Below are positions 2,803 to 13,641 of a stretch of DNA of 64,000 bases, piece after piece. Below the pieces are notes generated by a model, which saw nothing but the letters and a program-made list of their open reading frames with translations, was not told where the DNA came from and did not search any database. Numbering within the stretch: the first letter of the stretch is position 1; every line of letters starts with the position of its first letter. Position numbers and translations under genes: made by a program. This DNA is from an uncultured Actinomycetes bacterium (GTDB taxonomy: Bacteria; Actinomycetota; Coriobacteriia; Anaerosomatales; CAVRZR01), in NCBI GenBank assembly GCA_963809535.1, contig CAWEJW010000001.1, positions 1,150,105-1,214,104 on the forward strand. The letters are read 5' to 3'.

Positions 2803-3960
2803 CTACGGAAGCCGGTACTCCTGGGCGCCCGTCGTCGATCGAATCGGTCGGATGCGAACCACACTCGCCTTGAAGATGAGCTTCACACGCGAACCCACGG
2901 CAAGATCCAAGGCCAATGCTGACAGCCTCGAGACGGTCGACGCAAAGCGCAGACACCCGTGGGTGACCACTACTCGCTCCATCGCGCCGTCAGCCGACAG
3001 GTGGTCGACCACACCCTCGATCTGATTGCGCGCTGACGTCTTTGGCAGCTCGACGTCCGGCTCGAAGAGAAGGACATCCTCCGGCCGAACACCGACAACG
3101 ACGGGTGTGCCGACCTCGAAGTCCCCCATCGCGAAGATGTGCTCATCGCCGCAGTCCACGCGAACGATGCCCCCGTCGTTCGAGCCGACGACGCCCTCGA
3201 TCGGGCATTCCGCGCCGACGAAGGTCGCGACCCACTCGTCCACCGGCAATGCCAGGACGACCTCGGGTGCACCCTCGCTGACGATCCGGCCGTCGCGCAT
3301 GACCCCCATGCAATCGGCCACTACGGCGGCCTCATCTCGATCGTGGGTCACGTACAGCGTCGTGACATGCTCGCTCGCCAGTATGTCGGCAAACTCGAGC
3401 GACAACTGTCGCTTGAGCAACGGGTCGATGTAGGACAGCGGCTCGTCCAGCAATAGGAGGTCCGGCTCGAGCACGAGGGCCCTCGCAAGGGCGACCCGCT
3501 GCGCTTCGCCGCCCGACAGCGTCAGAGCACTTCTCTCTTGCCAGCCGTCCATGCCCATGCGAGCCAGCACTGCGGATACGCGCCTGGCACGCTCGTCCGC
3601 CCCGACGCTGCGCAGGCGAAGGCCATAGGCCACGTTGTCACGGACGGTGCCTCGCAGCAGATACGGCTTCTGGAAGACGGCGGCAACGCGGCGGCGCATC
3701 GACAGACTGTGCCGGTCTCCCTCAACACCGTCGAACAGGACGCGCCCGGTTGTCGGCTTCTCGAGCATACCGAGCACGCGAAGCAGGGTTGACTTCCCCG
3801 CACCGGACGCGCCGAGGAGGCAGTACGTCTTGCCAGACGCCAGCTCGATCACATCGACGTCGAGGACCGTCTTCTTGCGATACGCGACGGAAAGCTCCTC
3901 GCCCCGCACGAGCGGCGCGTCGGACTTCCCAGAGCCAGAGGCCAGAGCGTCAGCTTTCAT
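2803..3960 (-). CDS. tupC: Tungstate/molybdate ABC transporter ATP-binding protein with C-terminal TOBE domain
   Basis: Walker [18 protein letters not shown] signature, and a C-terminal TOBE-like beta domain ([22 protein letters not shown]). In an operon with tupA and tupB. Confidence 0.8.
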
Positions 3961-4654
3961 ACGCAGTCGACGTGTTCTGGAGCGCCGTGAGGGCTATGTT
4001 CACACTCAGAGCGATCCCGATGAGGATCATCGCCCAAGCCATTGCCGCGGCGAAGTCCCCTCGCGTCACGTTGGCCATGATCGCGGTGGTCATGACGTCC
4101 GTGTACCCTTCGATGCCGCCTCCGACGATCGACACGGCGCCGACCTCCGAGATGATGGCCGCGAAGCCTGCGATCACCGAGACGATGACTCCCCCGCGGG
4201 CCTCCTTCAGGATCGCGTAGGCCATCTGCATCCTCGACGCGCCCAACGCCTGGAGTTGAAGCCGGAGGTCACGTGCAACCGACTGCACGGCGACGGCAGT
4301 GACGCCGATCACGAGCGGTATTGCGAGAATCACCTGCGCGATGACCATGCCCTGCGGCGTGAACAGAAGGTCCAGGGTGCCCAAGGGACCCGATCTCGAG
4401 AGCGCCAGGTATACGAACAGACCAACCACCACAGGGGGAAAGCCCATAGCCGTGTTCACTAAGAGGATGACGATGGCACGTCCAGCAAATCTCCTGATGC
4501 CGAGAAAGTAGCCCAACGGAATGCCGAAGACCGCAGCGATCAGCACCGCAGAGCCGGAGACCATGAGGGAGAGAGTGACGACCTGGTAGACGCGGGAACC
4601 ACCGTGAAGAAGCAGCTGGATCGCGTTGGTTATGGCGGTGATGTAGATCTGCAT
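3950..4654 (-). CDS. tupB: Tungstate ABC transporter permease
   Basis: 234-aa polytopic permease with an EAA-like loop (LQALGASRMQMAYAILKEARGG). Overlaps the tupC start by 11 nt. Confidence 0.8.
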   Translation of the reverse strand: MQIYITAITNAIQLLLHGGSRVYQVVTLSLMVSGSAVLIAAVFGIPLGYFLGIRRFAGRAIVILLVNTAMGFPPVVVGLFVYLALSRSGPLGTLDLLFTPQGMVIAQVILAIPLVIGVTAVAVQSVARDLRLQLQALGASRMQMAYAILKEARGGVIVSVIAGFAAIISEVGAVSIVGGGIEGYTDVMTTAIMANVTRGDFAAAMAWAMILIGIALSVNIALTALQNTSTAYES

Positions 4655-4799: not shown

Positions 4800-6005
4800 C
4801 TACCAGTAACCAGGATTCGCTCTGAAGAGCGGGAAGCCGAACGTGTCGACTCCATACGCATTGATCGCCGATTTCGCCTGTGCGGACATAATCCAGCGCC
4901 GAAAGTCCTGCGCACCCTCTGGGTTCCTCGTGTACGGAACGGCGGTGGTGCGCCTCGTGACTTCGATGACGCTGTACTGGTTCTTGTAGACGCTGGATCC
5001 CTCGTCGACGATCTTGAGGTTCGTGACCGTCTTCAGCGTCACGGAACAGTTCAGCCACGTGCCACGGTCTGCCAGCGTGTAGCCGGCCTGCTGATCGGCT
5101 GCCGAAAGGGCCTGCGCCATACCCATAGTACCGGTGGCCTTGTACCACGACTGACCGGTCTGCGGATTGCCGATGGAGGCCCAGATCTCCTTCTCCTTGG
5201 TGTTGGTGCCGGAGTTGTCGTTGCGGGAGATGAAGATCGAGTTGGTCGACGCAATCTTGCCGAAGGCAACCACTGGTGTATCGGCATCGAGGATGCCTGC
5301 GGGGTTATTCTTCGGGCCGACAAGCACGTAGTCGTTGTACATCACCTTGAAGCGGGTTGCGCCCTTGTACGGCGTCAACGCGCCGGACACCCTGCCGCTC
5401 ATGAACGGCACTTCCAGTACGGGGCTGTGCACGAGCAGGACGTCGGCGTCGCCGCTACCGCCCAGCGCGATCGATGCGCCGGTTCCGAGGAACGCAGCCT
5501 TGACCGCGTACTCGGGACAGTCTCTCGCAAAGAGGGGCCTCATGGCTTCCCACAGTCCCGCGTCTCTGAACGACGTGGTCGATGCGAGGGTCAGCTGGTA
5601 CCTGACGCCAGGGCCGTTCTTCACGGCCAGCGTCGCCGTGCGAGACATCCCTGCTGAGGGGGCGGCGTAGCGCGCGCGGATGAAGAACTTCCCACCGAGT
5701 TTCGGCGTGTACTTGTACGACCACCGGCCGTCCGTCTTGATCAGCGGCTGGGAGATGACGGTCCACCAGGTACGCCCCGGCTTGCGGATCTCCAATGTGA
5801 GGCGCTTGCCGTGATACGCCTTGCTCACGCGGCCGCTCATGGTGAACGGGGCCGCCTTGTACTGATACGTCGAGCTTACGATCAGAGTCGAAATCGGGAC
5901 GGTTGCCGCGTGGGCAGCGACTGGCACGGCTAGTGCCGCCGCTAGAACCACCGCCACCAGTAGTGCGGCTCGCCGACGCATAGGCGAGCTCTTCAAGTGG
6001 GGCAT
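4800..6005 (-). CDS. tupA: Tungstate-binding protein TupA with signal peptide and an extra N-terminal domain of about 100 aa
   Basis: LASTTSFRDAGLW and SRNDNSGTNTKEKEIW match the TupA anion-binding motifs (TTTS..DSGL / SRGDNSGTH). Signal peptide ends AVPVAAHA-A. The second ATG (6005) is better spaced from GGAAAGGAG than ATG 6011. Confidence 0.85.
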   Translation of the reverse strand: MPHLKSSPMRRRAALLVAVVLAAALAVPVAAHAATVPISTLIVSSTYQYKAAPFTMSGRVSKAYHGKRLTLEIRKPGRTWWTVISQPLIKTDGRWSYKYTPKLGGKFFIRARYAAPSAGMSRTATLAVKNGPGVRYQLTLASTTSFRDAGLWEAMRPLFARDCPEYAVKAAFLGTGASIALGGSGDADVLLVHSPVLEVPFMSGRVSGALTPYKGATRFKVMYNDYVLVGPKNNPAGILDADTPVVAFGKIASTNSIFISRNDNSGTNTKEKEIWASIGNPQTGQSWYKATGTMGMAQALSAADQQAGYTLADRGTWLNCSVTLKTVTNLKIVDEGSSVYKNQYSVIEVTRRTTAVPYTRNPEGAQDFRRWIMSAQAKSAINAYGVDTFGFPLFRANPGYW

Positions 6006-6007
6006 AT

Positions 6008-6115
6008 GCATCTCCTTTCCAATACGGGAGGCCGCACGGTTCCCCGTGTGACCCTATCGTTCCGCTGACCGTTGCCAGCGCGTGCTGCAGAGGGTCGATG
6101 CGGAATCGGAGTCGC
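6008..6115 (-). promoter_or_regulatory. Structured leader RNA, Moco/Tuco-riboswitch-like (copy RS2), directly upstream of tupA
   Basis: Reverse strand reads GCGACTCCGA..TTCCGC/GCGGAA stem..CACGG-GGAA-CCGTG (GNRA hairpin)..GGCCTCCCGTATTGGAAAGGAGATGC. The outer helix GCGACTCC/GGAGATGC covers the tupA SD and first ATG. A 27-column block is near-identical to 10681..10707. Confidence 0.55.
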
Positions 6116-6148
6116 GCCGCTGCGGCGACGCGTCAAACCCATGGATAC

Positions 6149-6836
6149 CTACTTCACGAGCACCATGCTTGCAGCCACTTTCTTCAGGTCCGCCAGACCC
6201 GGGTCGCCCTGCAATTCGTTGAAGTTCCCACCGGAGTTGTAGATGATCATCGGTGGTGTGGTCTTGTCTGCCGGGTCCTGGTACATCACGTCTGCGCGCT
6301 GGCCGTCCCACGCGGTCTTCCCGGCTGAAGTGATCGGGTAGCCGTGCGCCTTCGGACTGCCCTGCGTGAACACCAGAGCCTTGTTGCCGTTGAGGAACAC
6401 CAAGCTGCAGACAAGGCCCGTTCCCGGATCGAACTCTACGATGTCCACGGTGTCCAGCTTGTATCCGGCGGGCAGCGTCTTCGGATACCAGACAGGGAAC
6501 TTGACGTTCCGGGCGTAGGTGGCCACCTTTGCCGGCCAGATCGCCGGAGTTGCGGGCTTCGCCGGCTTCGTCGTGGTTGTCGTCTTGGTCGTCGTAGCCG
6601 AACCTGTGGCGGCCGCAGACCCCGGCCGGGTTGGTCGTGCTTGTTCCGCCCGCTGAACCTGTGCTCGTCTCGGAAGGCAGTACTGCCTGCACGGTCCCGG
6701 TGGCGGAGACTGCACCGCGCTTCTCGGTCTTGGGTGTGTCCCTCCTCTTACATCCGGGCACAAGCAGAACGGCCATCACGAGAAGTAGCACGCCCAATAA
6801 CACGGCCAAGCGGCCAACTGGTGAGCGGTTGTGCAT
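6149..6836 (-). pseudogene. Lipoprotein with DUF4367-like C-terminal domain, apparently frameshifted in its Ser/Thr/Gly linker
   Basis: Signal peptide plus lipobox (LLLVMAVLLVPGCK) is in the frame of ORF 6054..6875. The folded C-terminal domain (FPVWYPKTLPAGYKLDTV..) is in the frame of ORF 6149..6763. The frames switch near CCGGCCGGGG (6618..6635). Confidence 0.55.
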
Positions 6837-6902
6837 TCGCATCATCTCCTCCCTTGCTGCCAACCGAGTTCGCAATTTACCATGCGGTCAGCTGCACTCC
6901 CA

Positions 6903-6918
6903 TGCGATTCCCGTGCCA
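6903..6918 (-). promoter_or_regulatory. Sigma-54 (-24/-12) promoter candidate upstream of the lipoprotein-tupABC unit
   Basis: Reverse strand TGGCACGGGAATCGCA against consensus TGGCACG-N4-TTGCW. GG and GC have the exact spacing. Lies about 65 nt upstream of ATG 6836. Confidence 0.55.
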
Positions 6919-7173
6919 CACTAAGTCCGCACTTAGGGACTATACCCAATGCCGAATGCGAAGTGCTAGACGCCCCGCATGAACGACGGATGAACCAGCG
7001 GCGGCTCTCGTCGCCGGGCCGCTTCGCACTCTCTGGTGAAACATGGACGGCTCGGAGTCAAACGGCTTGCCCCATCACATGCGATACTCGCGAAAGGCGA
7101 ACCACCCACAGAACGACGTTTCCGAGGCGTGCCACTACCTGCTGATGCGAGCCGACCGACCGGAAGGACACCT

Positions 7174-8394
7174 ATGGTGCTCGACAAGCGCGACTTGTAC
7201 CGGCTGCCGTGGTCGATGAACGACAACCCGATTGCGTGGTTGGAAGTCACCGACATCTGCAACATCCATTGCGAAGGTTGCTACCGTCAGCACCTCACGG
7301 GTCACAAGCCGCTCGAGCAGATGAAGGAAGAAGTCGACTTCTTCTGTCAGTGGCGCAATCCCGACAACTTCTCTCTTGCGGGCGGCGAACCACTTATCCA
7401 CCCAGAGATCCTCGATCTGGTTGCCTACATCGCCAGCAAGGGAGTCAAGCCCGTCATCCTGACCAACGCCAAGGCGCTGACGCCCGAGCTGCTCAAGGAA
7501 CTGAAGGCGGCCGGCGCAGCCGGCTTCACCATCCACATCGACAGCCATCAGGAACGGCCGAGCTGGGGCGGGAAGTCGGAAGCCGATCTGAACGAGCTCC
7601 GTCAGAAGTACGCCGACATGATCGCCGCCGAGGGCGGCATGTACGTGATCTTCAACTCGACGGTCTACCCGTCGACGTTCCAGGAAGTCCCGGACGTGGT
7701 GCGTTGGGGGCGAGCAAACATAGACCGCGTTCAGGGGCTCGTGTTCATCACGTACCGCACGGCGACCACCGATACGAGCGTGGCCATGAATCCGTTCGAT
7801 CAACAAGTCGACATGAGCATGCTGAGTTACACGCGCGACTCGTTCGAGGAGGAGTTCGTCACATCGCCCGAGGTCTACGAGCTGCTGCGGGAGCACTTCC
7901 CGGAGTACGACGCGTCCGGCTATCTGGGCGGAAGCGTCCGTCACGACTCTTTCAAGTGGCTCCTCGGCACGCAAGTCGGCAGCAAGCGCGAGATATACGG
8001 TTCAGTGGGCAAGCGCACGATGGAGATCGCTCAGGCGGGCCATCATCTCTTCACCGGAAGGTACCTGGCCTACCTTTCGCAATCGACCATCGGCCGCAAG
8101 GTGTTCCTGCTCTCGCCGTGGGACCGCAGCCTGCGCCAAGCCTGGAAGAGGAGGCTCGGCCAGGTGCCCCGTCGCCCTCAGAGTCTCTTCGACAGGATCT
8201 ACCTGCAGAGTATCGGGATTATCCAGGCTCCGGACATCCAGGCCGACGGCCGCGCCGACATGTGCGACTCCTGTCCGGACATCACCGTCTACGACGGCAA
8301 ATTCATCAACTCGTGCCGCATGGACGAATACCGGCTGTTCGGCGGTTTCGTCTCGATTCTCGACAAGGACAAGGTCGAGGTGCCGGAGAGTTGA
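7174..8394 (+). CDS. Radical SAM protein (unassigned subfamily) with C-terminal Cys cluster
   Basis: CNIHCEGC (CxxxCxxC) after LEVTDI, GGEPLIHPE motif, C-terminal CDSCPD..C. ATG 7174 is preceded by GGAAGGA. Confidence 0.85.
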   Translation: MVLDKRDLYRLPWSMNDNPIAWLEVTDICNIHCEGCYRQHLTGHKPLEQMKEEVDFFCQWRNPDNFSLAGGEPLIHPEILDLVAYIASKGVKPVILTNAKALTPELLKELKAAGAAGFTIHIDSHQERPSWGGKSEADLNELRQKYADMIAAEGGMYVIFNSTVYPSTFQEVPDVVRWGRANIDRVQGLVFITYRTATTDTSVAMNPFDQQVDMSMLSYTRDSFEEEFVTSPEVYELLREHFPEYDASGYLGGSVRHDSFKWLLGTQVGSKREIYGSVGKRTMEIAQAGHHLFTGRYLAYLSQSTIGRKVFLLSPWDRSLRQAWKRRLGQVPRRPQSLFDRIYLQSIGIIQAPDIQADGRADMCDSCPDITVYDGKFINSCRMDEYRLFGGFVSILDKDKVEVPES

Positions 8395-8395
8395 T

Positions 8396-9226
8396 GTGGC
8401 AGCGCTGACACCAAAGCTCTCCGTGGCCGACGCCCTTCGCAGCCTCGGGCGCATCCTTGCAGGCCGTCCCCAGGTGCCATCGGCGCTGGCGGGAAACGAG
8501 CTGCTCAAGATCGTCCTCAACCGCCGGAGCGTCCGCCGCTTTGCGGCGCGCCCCGTCGGCGACGACGTCTTCGCGGCGATACTCGAGGCCGGCCGACTCG
8601 CACCCTCGACGGTAAACCTCCAGAGCTGGACATTCTTGAGCTTCACCGCGGACACGTGGCAATCCGCGTTCGAACGTCCAATCCCCTTCAGGGCGCAGCA
8701 CGCGGTCATCGTGTGCGGGGACGCCCATCGGTATCGACAGGCTCTGGAAGGCTTTCCCCGCAGCCCGCTGGTCGAGTACACGCTGGCGGTGACGAACGCT
8801 TCTCTCGCCGCCATGAACATGAACGTCGCCGCTGAGGCGCTCGGCGTGGCGTCCGTCATGCTGTCCGAGACCGGGCGCAGCGGCCTGCTCGACCCAGGCT
8901 ACTTGAGGGATCAGCTCGGCCTGCCCGAGGGCGTCTTCCCGTTGATGACGCTCGTCTTCGGCTACGCAAGCGCCGCGCCTCCGCCCATGCCACCCAAGCT
9001 GCCGTTGGACGAGATTTGTTTCACGGACGGCCGCTACCACGAGGCCGACGAGGCAGTGCTGCGCGATTGGATGGCGCAGATGACGGCGGGGTACAAGGCG
9101 AGCCATCTGTTCTCGTCCATGGACGCGCAGCTTGACGTCTATCGATCCAAGATCGGCCAGGCGGAAGCGGACTTGACCGACATGATCTTCCGCGACGGGG
9201 AGACAGCTCCGGAATCGAATCCCTAG
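8396..9226 (+). CDS. Nitroreductase-family flavoprotein
   Basis: LNRRSVRRFAARPV..ILEAGRLAPSTVNLQSW is the nitroreductase signature. The GTG starts 2 nt after the radical SAM stop, suggesting translational coupling. Confidence 0.85.
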   Translation: MAALTPKLSVADALRSLGRILAGRPQVPSALAGNELLKIVLNRRSVRRFAARPVGDDVFAAILEAGRLAPSTVNLQSWTFLSFTADTWQSAFERPIPFRAQHAVIVCGDAHRYRQALEGFPRSPLVEYTLAVTNASLAAMNMNVAAEALGVASVMLSETGRSGLLDPGYLRDQLGLPEGVFPLMTLVFGYASAAPPPMPPKLPLDEICFTDGRYHEADEAVLRDWMAQMTAGYKASHLFSSMDAQLDVYRSKIGQAEADLTDMIFRDGETAPESNP

Positions 9227-9237
9227 GACGCCCGGGG

Positions 9238-10068
9238 TCAGTGCCGGCTGATGATCGTCCCGACGTCCTCGCCCGCGAGAGCGCGGGTCAGGTTCCCCTT
9301 CTCCAAGCCATTGATGATCTGTATGTAGTCGAGTACCTGGCTGTTCCGCAGAATGTCGAGACACGGCCTCTCTAGGATCAGATCGTCGAGCCCTAGCTCC
9401 ACCAATTCCGAGACCGTGATCCTCGGAATGAACTGCGCGTCAGGATTCTTCTTCGGATCGTCGGTGTAGAGACCCTTCTCGTCCTTTACGAAGATGCACG
9501 TTCGCGCGCCGATAAGGTCCGCCATAAGGATGGTTCCGACGTCAGTACGGTGGATGGGGATGTGGCCCTTTTCGGGAGGGATGGCGAAGAAGTCGTAGGG
9601 CGGCATGCCGCTCGTGACCGGCACACAACCCTGCGCGAAGTAGTTGGGCAGTTTCACGATCGCATCCTGATCGATCTCGATGCCCCCGTGCTGGGCGAGT
9701 AGCGTCGCAACGAGGAGTGCATTCTGTCTCGACACCGAACTGCCGAAGGCGGCGATGATCCCCGTGGGCATGCCGAGTTCGAGCCCGATCGCATAGATGT
9801 GACGGCTTCGGGTCCCGCCGCCGGTCATGAGAAGCATCTTGTGCTCGTCCTTGTTGTCGACGATCTCCTCGATGACGGCAGGCAGGGCTCTCTTGCCGCG
9901 GTCGCAGATCGACTGCCCTCCGATCTTGACAACGTTCACGTCGGGGAAGAGGCGCTGCTGAGGAACGTCCTCGAGCGAGTCAAGGAAGCTCTCACTCACC
10001 AGGCTCTCACCCATGAGCTTGCTCTTGATGTGCAGACGCATGCTGTCACGTTCGCGCACGAGCGGCAT
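9238..10068 (-). CDS. Molybdenum storage protein (MosA/MosB, amino-acid-kinase fold) homologue, single copy
   Basis: VVKIGGQSICDRG, GGGTRSRHIYAIGLELGMP, SGMPPY, IPIHRTDVG, FVKDEKGLYTDDPKKNPDAQFIPRITV and NGL..GNLTRALAGEDVGTIIS track my recollection of the Azotobacter MosA/B sequences along the whole length. GGGAGG lies 6 nt before ATG 10068. Confidence 0.75.
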   Translation of the reverse strand: MPLVRERDSMRLHIKSKLMGESLVSESFLDSLEDVPQQRLFPDVNVVKIGGQSICDRGKRALPAVIEEIVDNKDEHKMLLMTGGGTRSRHIYAIGLELGMPTGIIAAFGSSVSRQNALLVATLLAQHGGIEIDQDAIVKLPNYFAQGCVPVTSGMPPYDFFAIPPEKGHIPIHRTDVGTILMADLIGARTCIFVKDEKGLYTDDPKKNPDAQFIPRITVSELVELGLDDLILERPCLDILRNSQVLDYIQIINGLEKGNLTRALAGEDVGTIISRH

Positions 10069-10133
10069 CGGCAACCTCCCGGTCCTCGGAGCACGGGCTT
10101 CTCATGTCCGATCTTGAAGCCGGTCGCGCGGGA

Positions 10134-10355: not shown

Positions 10356-10603
10356 GTCGGCCTCCTTCGATGCGTTGTTGCGGCCTGCCCCAACTCTCTT
10401 GTCCATACCCAAGATGCGCTCCACATCGCCCGGCGTCGCGCTATGAGCTGTGGACGTGCACGCCGAACAGCGGATCCGTAGCCTTCCATCAAGCCAAGCG
10501 AAGCGCCAGGCGCTGTCGCCCGAGGCGACTGGTCCACTGGTGCTCCCCCGGGCAGAACCCTAAGGCAGAGTTTAGGCACGCTCACCTTGGGGTACATTGC
10601 GTG

Positions 10604-10706
10604 CGTCTCCGAGCGTCTCGACCTAATGGCCAAGAAGACCGACGGTCGTTGCGCCCGCAGGGTGCGGATGGAAACAGCCGGGCCTCCCGTGCTTGGAAAG
10701 GGGATG
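10604..10706 (+). promoter_or_regulatory. Structured leader RNA, Moco/Tuco-riboswitch-like (copy RS1)
   Basis: CGTCTCC-GAG..CGACC/GGTCG stem..CGGATG-GAAA-CAGCCG (GNRA hairpin)..GGCCTCCCGTGCTTGGAAAGGGGATG. Outer helix is CGTCTCC/GGGGATG. A TACATT -10-like box at 10593..10598 sits just upstream. Confidence 0.55.
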
Positions 10707-10775
10707 CTGATGGCACGCTCGTGCCGTCGTCTTGTCGTCCGCCCCAGTCTCGCGGGGCAAGCGAAGCTACTTCCT

Positions 10776-10879
10776 CCTCTCCTACCGAGGCCGACCATCC
10801 CTGCATCGGATGTAGCCACGCAGTAGGGAACTGCGGGCTCGCAGCAGGTGCGACCGGGGGTCGTGCCGGAAAGGGGAGG
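10776..10879 (+). promoter_or_regulatory. Possible third, more divergent tandem copy of the same leader (RS3) covering the SD of the cytochrome gene
   Basis: CCTCTCC-TA-CCGAG ... AGTAGGGAA, CTGCG-GGCT-CGCAG hairpin ... GCCGGAAAGGGGAGG. A 7-bp outer helix CCTCTCC/GGGGAGG would sequester the SD 5 nt before ATG 10884. Lacks the GGCCTCCC block. Confidence 0.3.
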
Positions 10880-12374: not shown

Positions 12375-12413
12375 TCCTGCACAAGAGGTCGTTGCACGCC
12401 CGTCCGAGGCGAT

Positions 12414-12443
12414 GAGAGGGCTCCGGCTTGCCGGGGCCCTCTC
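12414..12443 (+). terminator. Strong hairpin between the cytochrome gene and the transporter gene (no U-tract)
   Basis: GAGAGGGCTCCGG-CTTG-CCGGGGCCCTCTC, a 13-bp stem with one G-U pair. It rules out the ORF-track start at 12412. Confidence 0.4.
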
Positions 12444-12477
12444 GCTACCCACCCGTGAATCCGTCGTACGATGGGTC

Positions 12478-13641
12478 ATGCAGTCACGGTCCGGCCGGGT
12501 CGATGGAACGAGGCGAGTGAAGAAGCAGCCGATCAAGGTCAACCTGACCGAGCTGGCTGGCTCGATGGGCGATTTCGGCACCCTCCTACCGTTGGCGGTT
12601 GGCTACATCGCCGTGTGTGGCCTCAACCCGGCGGGCTTGCTCGTGATGATGGGCCTGGCCAATATCGCCACCGGTCTCGTCTACCGCCTCCCAATGCCTA
12701 TCGAGCCTATGAAGGTGCTTGCAGTCGTGGCCATCGCCCAACATTGGACGCCTTCAATGGTGTATGCGTCCGGATTCGGCATGGGCATGGTATGGCTCTT
12801 CTTGGGCGTCACGGGAATCATCAGTTGGATCGCACGCGTGACGCCAAGACCGGTGGTAATGGGCATCCAGACGACTCTCGGCGTGCTGTTGGCCATTGAG
12901 GCGCTCCGTCTGGGATCGACTTCATGGGCACTCGCCATTCTAGGCGTCGTCATCGTGCTCACTCTCCGGGGCAACCGATATGCACCGGCAGCAATCGTGC
13001 TAGTCCTTCTTGGTTTGGGCGTCATGCTGCTCAAGGGTGACCTATCGCATCTGGCAACACCCGAGCTGAAACTGCCGTCCTTCGCCACGTTCACCGGCAA
13101 ACAGGTATGGCAGACACTCTTGCTCGCCGGATTCGCGCAGGTTCCACTCACCGCAACCAATGCAGTCATCTCCACGTCGCACCTGATCACGAGCTACTGG
13201 CCCGATGAGTACGTCAGCCCGAGGAAGCTCTCGTTCAGCCACGGCATCATGAACGCCACCGCTCCGTTCTTCGGCGGCATGCCCATGTGTCACGGCGCGG
13301 GAGGTCTCGCTGGCCAGTACTACTACGGCGCACGAACTGCAGGGACCAACCTTATCGAAGGCACGATCGAAATCGTTCTCGGGCTCTTCTTCGCGGCTTC
13401 CATCGCGGCGCTCTTCATCGCGTTTCCCAAAGCGATCATCGGAGCGATGATGTTCCTGGTCGGCGTCGAGCTGATGAAGTTCGCGCGGCACGTGAGGCCT
13501 GGTCGCGACCTCATCGTGTTGGGCGCGACTGTCGGAATCGCACTACTGACGAACATGGCCTACGGCTTCCTGGGTGGCATCGCCGTGCATGAGGCGCTCA
13601 AACGCATACCGAAGCGGAACACAGGCGAAGGAGGCCAGTAG
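12478..13641 (+). CDS. MOT1/SulP-related putative molybdate (or tungstate) transporter
   Basis: LTELAGSMGDFGTLLPLAVGY..GLANIATGLVYRLPMPIEPMKVLA resembles the MFS_MOT1 molybdate-transporter repeat, and the protein is polytopic. Start is uncertain (ATG 12478 or GTG 12517). Confidence 0.7.
   Translation: MQSRSGRVDGTRRVKKQPIKVNLTELAGSMGDFGTLLPLAVGYIAVCGLNPAGLLVMMGLANIATGLVYRLPMPIEPMKVLAVVAIAQHWTPSMVYASGFGMGMVWLFLGVTGIISWIARVTPRPVVMGIQTTLGVLLAIEALRLGSTSWALAILGVVIVLTLRGNRYAPAAIVLVLLGLGVMLLKGDLSHLATPELKLPSFATFTGKQVWQTLLLAGFAQVPLTATNAVISTSHLITSYWPDEYVSPRKLSFSHGIMNATAPFFGGMPMCHGAGGLAGQYYYGARTAGTNLIEGTIEIVLGLFFAASIAALFIAFPKAIIGAMMFLVGVELMKFARHVRPGRDLIVLGATVGIALLTNMAYGFLGGIAVHEALKRIPKRNTGEGGQ

Follow-up and report, generated by a model that had tools for sequence, protein, structure and literature searches.

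In the archetype of the molybdenum cofactor/tungsten cofactor (Moco/Tuco) riboswitch family RF01055, the leader of E. coli moaA, the ribosome-binding site (RBS) lies inside helix P1, and the RNA is a genetic OFF switch (Regulski et al. 2008, PMC2408646). Members of the family without helix P3 have been linked to Tuco genes by correlation, and the ligand is unstable, with direct binding not shown even for the E. coli archetype (PMC2408646). A P3-less RF01055 RNA with RBS sequestration has been described upstream of tupABC in Eubacterium limosum (PMC11725836). Here we describe the leader of a gene coding for a TupA-like binding protein on the minus strand of a 64,000-nucleotide stretch of DNA (referred to as the window; contig CAWEJW010000001.1 of assembly GCA_963809535.1, positions 1,150,105 to 1,214,104) from an uncultured Actinomycetes bacterium. 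The leader is a P3-less member of RF01055 ahead of a tungstate-type transporter, and the four-helix junction P1/P2/P4/P5 is present.

The whole window was compared with all 4227 families of Rfam 15 at the gathering threshold (cmscan), and RF01055 was matched at 5996..6122 of the minus strand with 41.0 bits (gathering score 36, E 2.6e-6). The match is full-length, with model positions 1-135 aligned and the P3 positions deleted, and a local scan agrees. The leader belongs to the P3-less ('Tuco') class: the P3 insert has a length of 0 in the covariance-model alignment, compared to 41-44 nt in P3-bearing matches, and the J2/4 linker joining P2 to P4 is only 5 nt long (6059..6055). The junction blocks CUCCGA, AGGG, GCCUCCC and UGGAAAGGAG are all found within 6111..6012 and are invariant or nearly so in the alignment of the clade, and every column that is invariant across a 19-sequence seed is kept in the window copy. 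The genomic context is also that of the family, the aptamer lying directly 5' of genes coding for a TupA-like protein, a TupB-like protein and a TOBE-domain ATPase. An initial annotation, made from the letters of the window alone, had proposed the Moco RNA motif as the identity of this leader and an Infernal search as the check; this identification was borne out, as both copies in the window (the second is described below) score above the curated threshold. The parts of the aptamer are the following.

5996..6122, minus strand: aptamer, P3-less RF01055 (cmscan)
6108..6111, minus strand: 5' strand of the P1 core, CUCC, which pairs with GGAG at 6015..6012 and matches the Rfam consensus
6060..6105, minus strand: P2, consisting of P2a, P2b and a distal stem, with covariation in P2a, P2b and P2c
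6029..6054, minus strand: P4 hairpin with a GGAA tetraloop at 6043..6040, with compensatory change in 6 of its 11 pairs
6019..6028, minus strand: P5 mini-hairpin CC-CGUAUU-GG, part of the conserved block CCUCCCGUAUUGGAAAGG (Rfam consensus structure)
6012..6015, minus strand: Shine-Dalgarno (SD) sequence GGAG, which is the 3' strand of the P1 core (read directly; GGAAAGGAG is conserved)

The outer helix sets GCGACUCC (6115..6108) opposite GGAGAUGC (6015..6008), with 7 pairs, of which one is G-U, and an A-A mismatch. P2a is formed by UUCCGC (6105..6100) and GCGGAA (6065..6060), P2b by GACC/GGUC and the distal stem by CAGC/GCUG, while P4 has the upper hairpin CACGG-GGAA-CCGUG (6048..6035) and is closed by GGCCU at 6033..6029, and P5 consists of the CC/GG pairs 6028-6027/6020-6019. 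The minimum free energy (MFE) structure of 5996..6122 (ViennaRNA, -48.6 kcal/mol) reproduces the helices that had been drawn by eye, and all four elements of the initial annotation are found on the minus strand at the positions it gave. Two details of that description change. The tract GGCCUCCCGUAUUGGAAAGGAG (6033..6012), which had been taken as single-stranded, is mostly paired in the family structure, where it makes up the base of P4, P5 and a strand of P1. The extent given, 6008..6115, is slightly narrower than the Rfam match, and the conserved element reaches 6132 via an upstream hairpin.

The long architecture of the TupA-like protein is common to about 85 proteins with 46-61% identity, mostly from metagenome-assembled genomes (MAGs) labelled Coriobacteriia or Actinomycetes, and the loci studied were drawn from species-representative genomes and metagenomes. 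RF01055 abuts the start codon in the long-form loci that were tested with Rfam (44-56 bits), and a clade model built from the Rfam-confirmed seeds places a proximal aptamer copy, ending at the start codon, in 22 long-form tupA loci besides the window. The resulting 23 orthologous leaders, including that of the window, were aligned with MAFFT without fitting to a structure, and the Rfam-derived pairs were then evaluated. The fraction of cells that pair is 86.6%, and it falls to 35-46% when the partners are slid by 1-3 columns. Double-sided change is seen in 22 of the 38 pairs, compared to 10.1 ± 1.8 in column shuffles (reached in 0/500), and the compensatory changes are carried by P2a, P2b, the distal P2 stem and P4. 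The P1 core and P5 pair in 94.6% and 95.7% of the cells, respectively, and since their pairs are nearly invariant, covariation is uninformative for these two helices. RNAalifold independently recovers P1, P2, P4 and P5. The multistem junction and its four helices are maintained by compensatory substitutions across the orthologous leaders, and the covariation check on tupA leaders, which had been suggested together with the Infernal search, gave a positive answer.

On the minus strand, a gap of 145 nt separates the stop codon of the upstream open reading frame (ORF; stop at 6149) from the first codons of ORF 4800..6011, and the riboswitch is intercistronic, starting 26 nt past that stop codon. 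In nearly all members of the clade, an ATG lies 4-6 nt past a conserved GGAAAGGAGA; in the window, it corresponds to the second ATG of the ORF.

6003..6005, minus strand: second ATG, the probable genuine start of the TupA-like gene, aligned with the ATG of 22 orthologs

This codon lies 6 nt after GGAG, and the protein translated from 6005 begins with MPHLKSSPMRRR, in residue-by-residue alignment with orthologs such as that of locus L005 (MRHRKGLPGTRR). No spacing separates the SD from the first ATG (6011..6009). The outer helix had initially been described as burying both the SD and the first ATG; the SD is indeed in P1, in a geometry that is conserved in all orthologs, but the first ATG is not a conserved start. 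Neither an intrinsic terminator nor a sigma70-like promoter was found between the aptamer and the gene (scan of 5800..7100), and translational control therefore fits. A separate hairpin, independent of the aptamer, is predicted in the coding region (ViennaRNA), with GAUGCAUA pairing with UAUGCGUC (6012..6005 with 5982..5975, minus strand); it would pair both ATGs with the region of a third in-frame ATG (5981..5979).

When more 5' context is included, an additional hairpin appears 1 nt before the P1 core.

6113..6132, minus strand: GC-rich hairpin 'P0', with CGCGUCGC (6132..6125), loop CGCA and GCGGCGCG (6120..6113)

With the same 23 leaders extended by 30 nt upstream, P0 pairs in 87.5% of the cells (21-66% in slid controls), and 7 of its 8 pairs change on both sides, compared to 2.2 ± 1.0 in shuffles (0/500). 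It contributes -14.5 kcal/mol. P0 is a real clade-specific appendage, and the distal copies of the aptamer found in relatives likewise have a GC hairpin 1-8 nt 5' of CUCC, unrelated to P0 in sequence. The 3' strand of P0 has an alternative partner in the start-codon region (window, GCG/UGC; relatives, GGCGC/GCGCC). These outer 3 bp are the ones that had been thought to bury the first ATG, and they are mutually exclusive with the more stable, covarying hairpin: the aptamer with P0 amounts to -56.3 kcal/mol, and the aptamer with the outer extension to -47.8 kcal/mol (nearest-neighbour energies, about 8.5 kcal/mol in favour of the hairpin). A P1 extended over the start codon seemed supported when pooled with the other helices; taken alone, its covariation is indistinguishable from that of shuffles (329/500). 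When the duplex energy of the upstream segment with the 5' strand of P1 was compared to that of mononucleotide shuffles, the signal was weak (mean z -1.06, 20 of 23 values negative), and the column-wise count of covarying pairs was the informative measure. The burial of the ATG by an outer helix probably does not occur, while that of the SD stands.

The two competing partners could instead form a three-strand toggle, in which P0 is an anti-sequestor. In the ligand-free state it would capture 6120..6113, preventing the extension of P1 and leaving the SD and the AUG accessible, and ligand binding would free this strand to pair with the start-codon region, burying the AUG. P0 and the extension share 6118..6114 and cannot coexist, and both tolerate C-to-U changes on the shared strand, with locus L001 compensating in the extension and L087 in the hairpin. 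The extension, which in the window comprises GCG/UGC plus GGC/GCC, is competent for pairing in 88.7% of the cells (19-65% when slid), and outer P1 pairs are also drawn in the Rfam consensus. Its 3' strand is, however, conserved coding sequence (ATG-CGC-C), and its shuffle-like covariation includes one compensatory cell only. P0 is moreover transcribed first, so that ligand binding would have to pay for the disruption of the more favourable hairpin, and the hairpins of the distal copies are not consistently complementary to their own start regions. We consider the toggle unlikely. P0 probably forms constitutively and would thereby exclude the longer outer helix; possible roles are stacking on the short P1, or marking and protecting the 5' end of the regulated RNA.

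The genes downstream of the aptamer are the following.

4800..6005, minus strand: long-form TupA-like substrate-binding protein (PF12849 (PBP_like_2), 97 bits; NCBIfam TupA)
3950..4654, minus strand: TupB-like ATP-binding cassette (ABC) permease (NF038017, 227.6 bits, above cutoff; TupB, 154 bits, below the cutoff of 320)
2803..3960, minus strand: ABC ATPase with a C-terminal TOBE domain, WtpC/ModC-like (PF00005, PF03459)

The binding protein consists of a signal peptide, an all-beta N-terminal domain of about 90 amino acids (aa) and a TupA-type binding domain. Its nearest solved relatives by sequence are 5my5 (E 6.9e-41), named Desulfovibrio alaskensis TupA in the fold search, and the Geobacter tungstate-binding protein 3lr1. 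The AlphaFold (AF2) model, with a predicted local distance difference test score (pLDDT) of 89.7, superimposes on 5my5 with a template modelling (TM) score of 0.89 and a root-mean-square deviation of 2.4 Å (Foldseek), and the anion-site motif is ASTTS, compared to ATTTS in 5my5. The best NCBIfam match is TupA (NF041772), with 151.8 bits for an equivalog cutoff of 400, and it covers aa 139-387 only; that of the ATPase is WtpC (230 bits, below cutoff). The N-terminal extension (aa ~45-130, window 5600..5900, minus strand) is predicted to be seven-stranded and all-beta with a pLDDT of 92-98, and is conserved in about 85 homologs and absent from the characterised TupA proteins. It matches no Pfam family and has no sequence relative in the PDB, and the Foldseek output for it was dominated by the binding domain. 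The tungstate transporter named in the initial annotation is recognisable in the TupA family membership, the TupB-like permease and the ABC ATPase, but with a score below the equivalog cutoff and an extra N-terminal domain. The name tupA is right at the family level, for a long-form variant that is not a validated equivalog and whose specificity for tungstate is putative.

Taken together, we estimate the probability at roughly 0.8 that 5996..6122 (minus strand) is a functional P3-less Moco/Tuco aptamer, in which the cofactor locks P1, hides the SD and represses the tup-type operon. When abundant, the metal-bound pyranopterin cofactor would bind the junction and lock P1. The locked P1 would hide the SD, and translation of the binding protein would fall. 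Expression of the permease and the ATPase would probably fall too, via coupling or mRNA decay, and the outcome would be negative feedback on oxyanion uptake. The lack of P3 and the Tup-type transporter encoded downstream make the tungsten form of the cofactor the most probable ligand.

Untranslated leaders in GC-rich bacteria are typical substrates of Rho, and control could accordingly be exerted mainly via transcription or RNA stability (Rho-dependent termination or decay), and not directly on the initiation of translation. Other RF01055 members do use terminators (PMC2408646, PMC11725836). Here, the start codon 6 nt past P1 leaves no room for a terminator, none was detected, and the intercistronic position, so close behind the upstream stop codon, as well as the SD-in-P1 geometry of all orthologs speak for translational control, which makes this alternative very unlikely.

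Several observations weigh against a functional aptamer that senses Tuco and switches translation off. The score of 41.0 bits is only 5 above the threshold and is the lowest among the Rfam-detected orthologous copies. The fold is also thermodynamically unexceptional, with an MFE z of -1.27 and 19 of 200 shuffles folding equally well; since the composition is 64% GC, thermodynamics is uninformative for this leader, which exceeds chance by the covariance model and by the conservation and covariation of the orthologous leaders, and not by thermodynamics alone. With longer flanks, the P1 core is mostly open in the ensemble without ligand (pairing of 0.2-0.9 for its 5' strand and 0.08 for GGA); this modelled open P1 would fit an ON state, and it offers no positive support for the OFF state.

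The tertiary contact between P4 and P2 is a further point of this kind. GAAA is almost always found on P4 in this family and docks into a receptor in the P2 bulge (PMC2408646). The window copy does not have this canonical pair of GAAA loop and receptor (CCUAAG / UAUGG type): its tetraloop is GGAA, and its P2 bulge (6094..6089) reads CCCUCU where the receptor half CCUAAG is expected. Among the 69 scorable hits across all fetched loci, GGAA occurs in only 4 (the window, L002, L084 and L085), and an NCU-type receptor half is found in 56 of 59 GAAA hits and in 0 of 4 GGAA hits (Fisher p 6e-5, uncorrected for relatedness). The GNRA-capped hairpin of the initial annotation is thus present, with the correction that its loop is GGAA and its receptor diverged, and the tetraloop-receptor contact is probably lost or altered. 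A few bona fide RF01055 members do without it (Regulski et al., PMC2408646), so the contact is typical and not obligatory. The core is most degenerate in the three other GGAA copies; the window copy, by contrast, retains all junction blocks.

The shared GGAA loop and diverged receptor of the clearly eroded L002, L084 and L085, together with the low Rfam score, could mean that the window aptamer is itself a decaying relic that binds no ligand, the leader being merely a constitutive SD-containing structure. Weak tupA-proximal copies, with 22-44 bits under the clade model, are found in L002 (3842-3965), L004 (3886-4010), L085 (897-1022) and L088 (2353-2477), L004 and L088 thus adding to the eroded ones; those of L002 and L004, the two covered by the Rfam scan, were missed at its gathering score. 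Conserved blocks are mutated in these copies (for instance UCAUGG or UUUGCA for CUCCGA), and by sequence they look like aptamers eroding in some lineages. The window has in addition lost a distal copy that its relatives carry. The junction blocks of the window copy are nevertheless intact, all of its helices pair with isolated mismatches only, and all invariant columns of the 19-sequence seed are retained, so that we regard decay as highly improbable and a functional aptamer as the preferred reading.

The identity of the ligand is less secure. The preference for the tungsten form draws only on a published correlation, a scan of 39 ORFs of the window turned up no enzyme that depends on Mo or W, and the equivalog cutoffs of TupA, TupB and WtpC were all missed. 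The other P3-less copy in the window, moreover, precedes a transporter of a family named for molybdate.

10595..10719, plus strand: second P3-less RF01055 copy (cmscan, 68 bits, E 3e-14)

This second copy contains the recurring block that had been noted at 10681..10707 (GGCCTCCCGTGCTTGGAAAGGGGATGC), for which near-identity was confirmed (24 of 26 bases match, with one indel); it is a full-length match to the model with the P3 positions deleted. It is followed by a gene coding for a GEGP-motif diheme protein (NF041762, 417 bits) and then by a MOT1-family ('molybdate transporter') gene at 12412..13641. These points would fit an RNA that senses Moco, or both metal forms, and a transporter for molybdate or mixed oxyanions, all the more as the deletion of P3 in the E. 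coli RNA left its specificity unswitched (PMC2408646). The solved proteins closest to the binding domain are, on the other hand, the tungstate-binding TupA and the Geobacter tungstate-binding protein, and P3-less RNAs track Tup/Wtp and tungstoenzyme genes in surveys (PMC2408646, PMC11725836). Sensing of Moco or of both forms is, in our view, somewhat unlikely, and Tuco is kept as the probable ligand.

As for the surroundings of the second copy, it lies ~165 nt from the likely start of the diheme protein (ATG 10885, SD GGGGAGG). An AUG at 10704, placed like the start codon of the other copies, opens an ORF of ~40 codons that ends at 10826; in the homologous copy of L001 (1837-1960), AUGUGA is found in its place. 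Three genes lie between the two riboswitch operons and have no obvious link to Mo/W metabolism. The amino-acid-kinase family (uridine monophosphate (UMP) kinase-like) is also that of the molybdenum storage protein subunits.

9238..10074, minus strand; 7036..8394, plus strand; 8396..9226, plus strand: amino-acid-kinase-family protein, UMP-kinase-like; radical S-adenosylmethionine protein; nitroreductase-family protein (listed together)

In relatives, the aptamer is found in several copies. Locus L005 has three on one strand within 4 kb (103-222, 3025-3153 and 3883-4010), which precede, in this order, a short tupA-tupB-tupC set, a lipoprotein gene and the long-form tupA. In ten loci (L003, L005, L006, L007, L008, L009, L010, L082, L089 and L095), the lipoprotein gene is preceded by a P3-less RF01055 copy of its own that contains its SD; in L005, for example, the copy at 3025-3153 stands before the gene at 3144-3866. 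The lipoprotein would therefore appear to be a conserved, cofactor-regulated protein of uncharacterised function next to tupA in relatives. Of an L005-type array, the window keeps only the tupA-proximal copy. A third, distal copy was found neither with Rfam at E<=10 on 5900..7400 nor with the clade model run over the whole window with filters off, where the next best match has 11.3 bits (E 0.11). The lipoprotein gene of the window has a plain SD leader (GGGAGGAG, about 6853), without the distal riboswitch copy of its relatives. The protein itself has no Pfam family, a weak match to DUF4367 and no relative in the PDB.

The reading frame of this lipoprotein (6149..6875, minus strand) is interrupted in the window: the signal peptide and the LVPGC lipobox are read in the same frame as ORF 6054..6875, and the conserved C-terminal domain in that of ORF 6149..6763. 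In relatives, a single frame codes for the entire protein (L005 3144-3866, L009 2254-2895). The switch occurs near 6620..6630, at a CCGGCCGGGG run, and therefore points to an assembly indel or a pseudogene. A recurring motif of the G-TAT(G/C)CT type (GGUUAUGCU, GUAUAUGCU, GUGUAUCCU and similar) is seen 25-35 nt upstream of the distal copies in L003, L005, L008, L009, L010, L082, L083, L089 and L095, where it precedes the 5' hairpin and is placed as a -10 element would be; the sigma70 consensus scan flagged none of these motifs. In the window, TGGGTATAGT is found before the lipoprotein gene (~6952..6943), and AGGTATCCA (6147..6142) overlaps the lipoprotein stop codon just upstream of the hairpin.

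Other arrangements were also observed. Ahead of the short-form tupA, tandem aptamers occur in which the first is without P3 and the second has a P3 insert of 41-44 nt.

L022: 3591-3710 and 3758-3909
L028: 3511-3630 and 3764-3909
L062: 3362-3480 and 3691-3845

By their sequence, such tandems could be two-input (Tuco plus Moco) arrangements. The Synergistaceae loci (L067, L070, L071 and L073-L079) have two P3-less copies on the same strand ahead of tupA, with ~320-370 nt between them, a layout that recurs across many Synergistaceae MAGs.

The copies in relatives, together with P0, allow for a bolder proposal, namely a new platform in a Coriobacteriia-like clade that combines the three-strand toggle with a module copied before successive cistrons of one transcript, each of which is gated separately. 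These cistrons may be the short tupABC, the uncharacterised lipoprotein and the long-form tupA. Such a platform is clearly unlikely; if it does exist, tungsten acquisition in Gram-positive anaerobes would include two new components under cofactor control, the lipoprotein and the beta-domain TupA.

The tupA leader is an ordinary RF01055 member that standard Rfam annotation would detect. It adds little to riboswitch biology, as the link between P3-less Moco RNAs and tup genes has been published since 2008 and followed by recent physiological work. It does mark the tupA-like operon, plus the adjacent lipoprotein in relatives, as part of a tungsten/molybdenum cofactor regulon, and it allows the start of the binding-protein gene to be set at 6005. 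The clade also provides natural variation, in the form of a receptor-less GGAA loop, a hairpin on the 5' side, copies ahead of individual cistrons and eroded copies, and could help to show which flanking helices and tertiary contacts are required by the aptamer.

Like the archetype, the window copy has P1, P2, P4 and P5, the conserved multistem junction and a GNRA-capped P4, and it stands upstream of Mo/W transport genes with the RBS in the 3' strand of P1, as a predicted OFF switch. Unlike the E. coli moaA RNA, which has P3 and needs it, it is without P3; it also differs from the archetype in its GGAA loop on P4 and diverged receptor, in the covarying hairpin directly 5' of P1, and in its intercistronic position, which is not at the head of an operon. 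The Tuco riboswitches of E. limosum are P3-less and are found upstream of tupABC, wor1, fetABC and focA (PMC11725836), and the RNAs described here resemble them in lacking P3, in their presence ahead of a tupABC set, in the predicted translational sequestration of the RBS and in the occurrence of several copies per genome. The tupABC leader of E. limosum, however, uses a separate RBS-sequestor hairpin and an anti-sequestor that overlaps an aptamer helix, whereas the SD of the window is the P1 strand itself, a direct sequestration that resembles the fetABC2 case of E. limosum. The host also belongs to another phylum (a Coriobacteriia-like actinobacterium), and its TupA has an extra N-terminal domain. 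Multiple copies have precedents in the triple P3-less array of Syntrophomonas wolfei and the tandems of Geobacter metallireducens (PMC2408646), and the relatives of this locus similarly have two or three P3-less aptamers on the same strand in a span of ~4 kb. While the S. wolfei copies are stacked before the first ORF and have terminators, each copy here precedes its own cistron and holds its SD. The 5' hairpin, the lost tetraloop-receptor contact and the per-cistron copies are modest variations that leave the classification of this leader as a P3-less RF01055 riboswitch unchanged.

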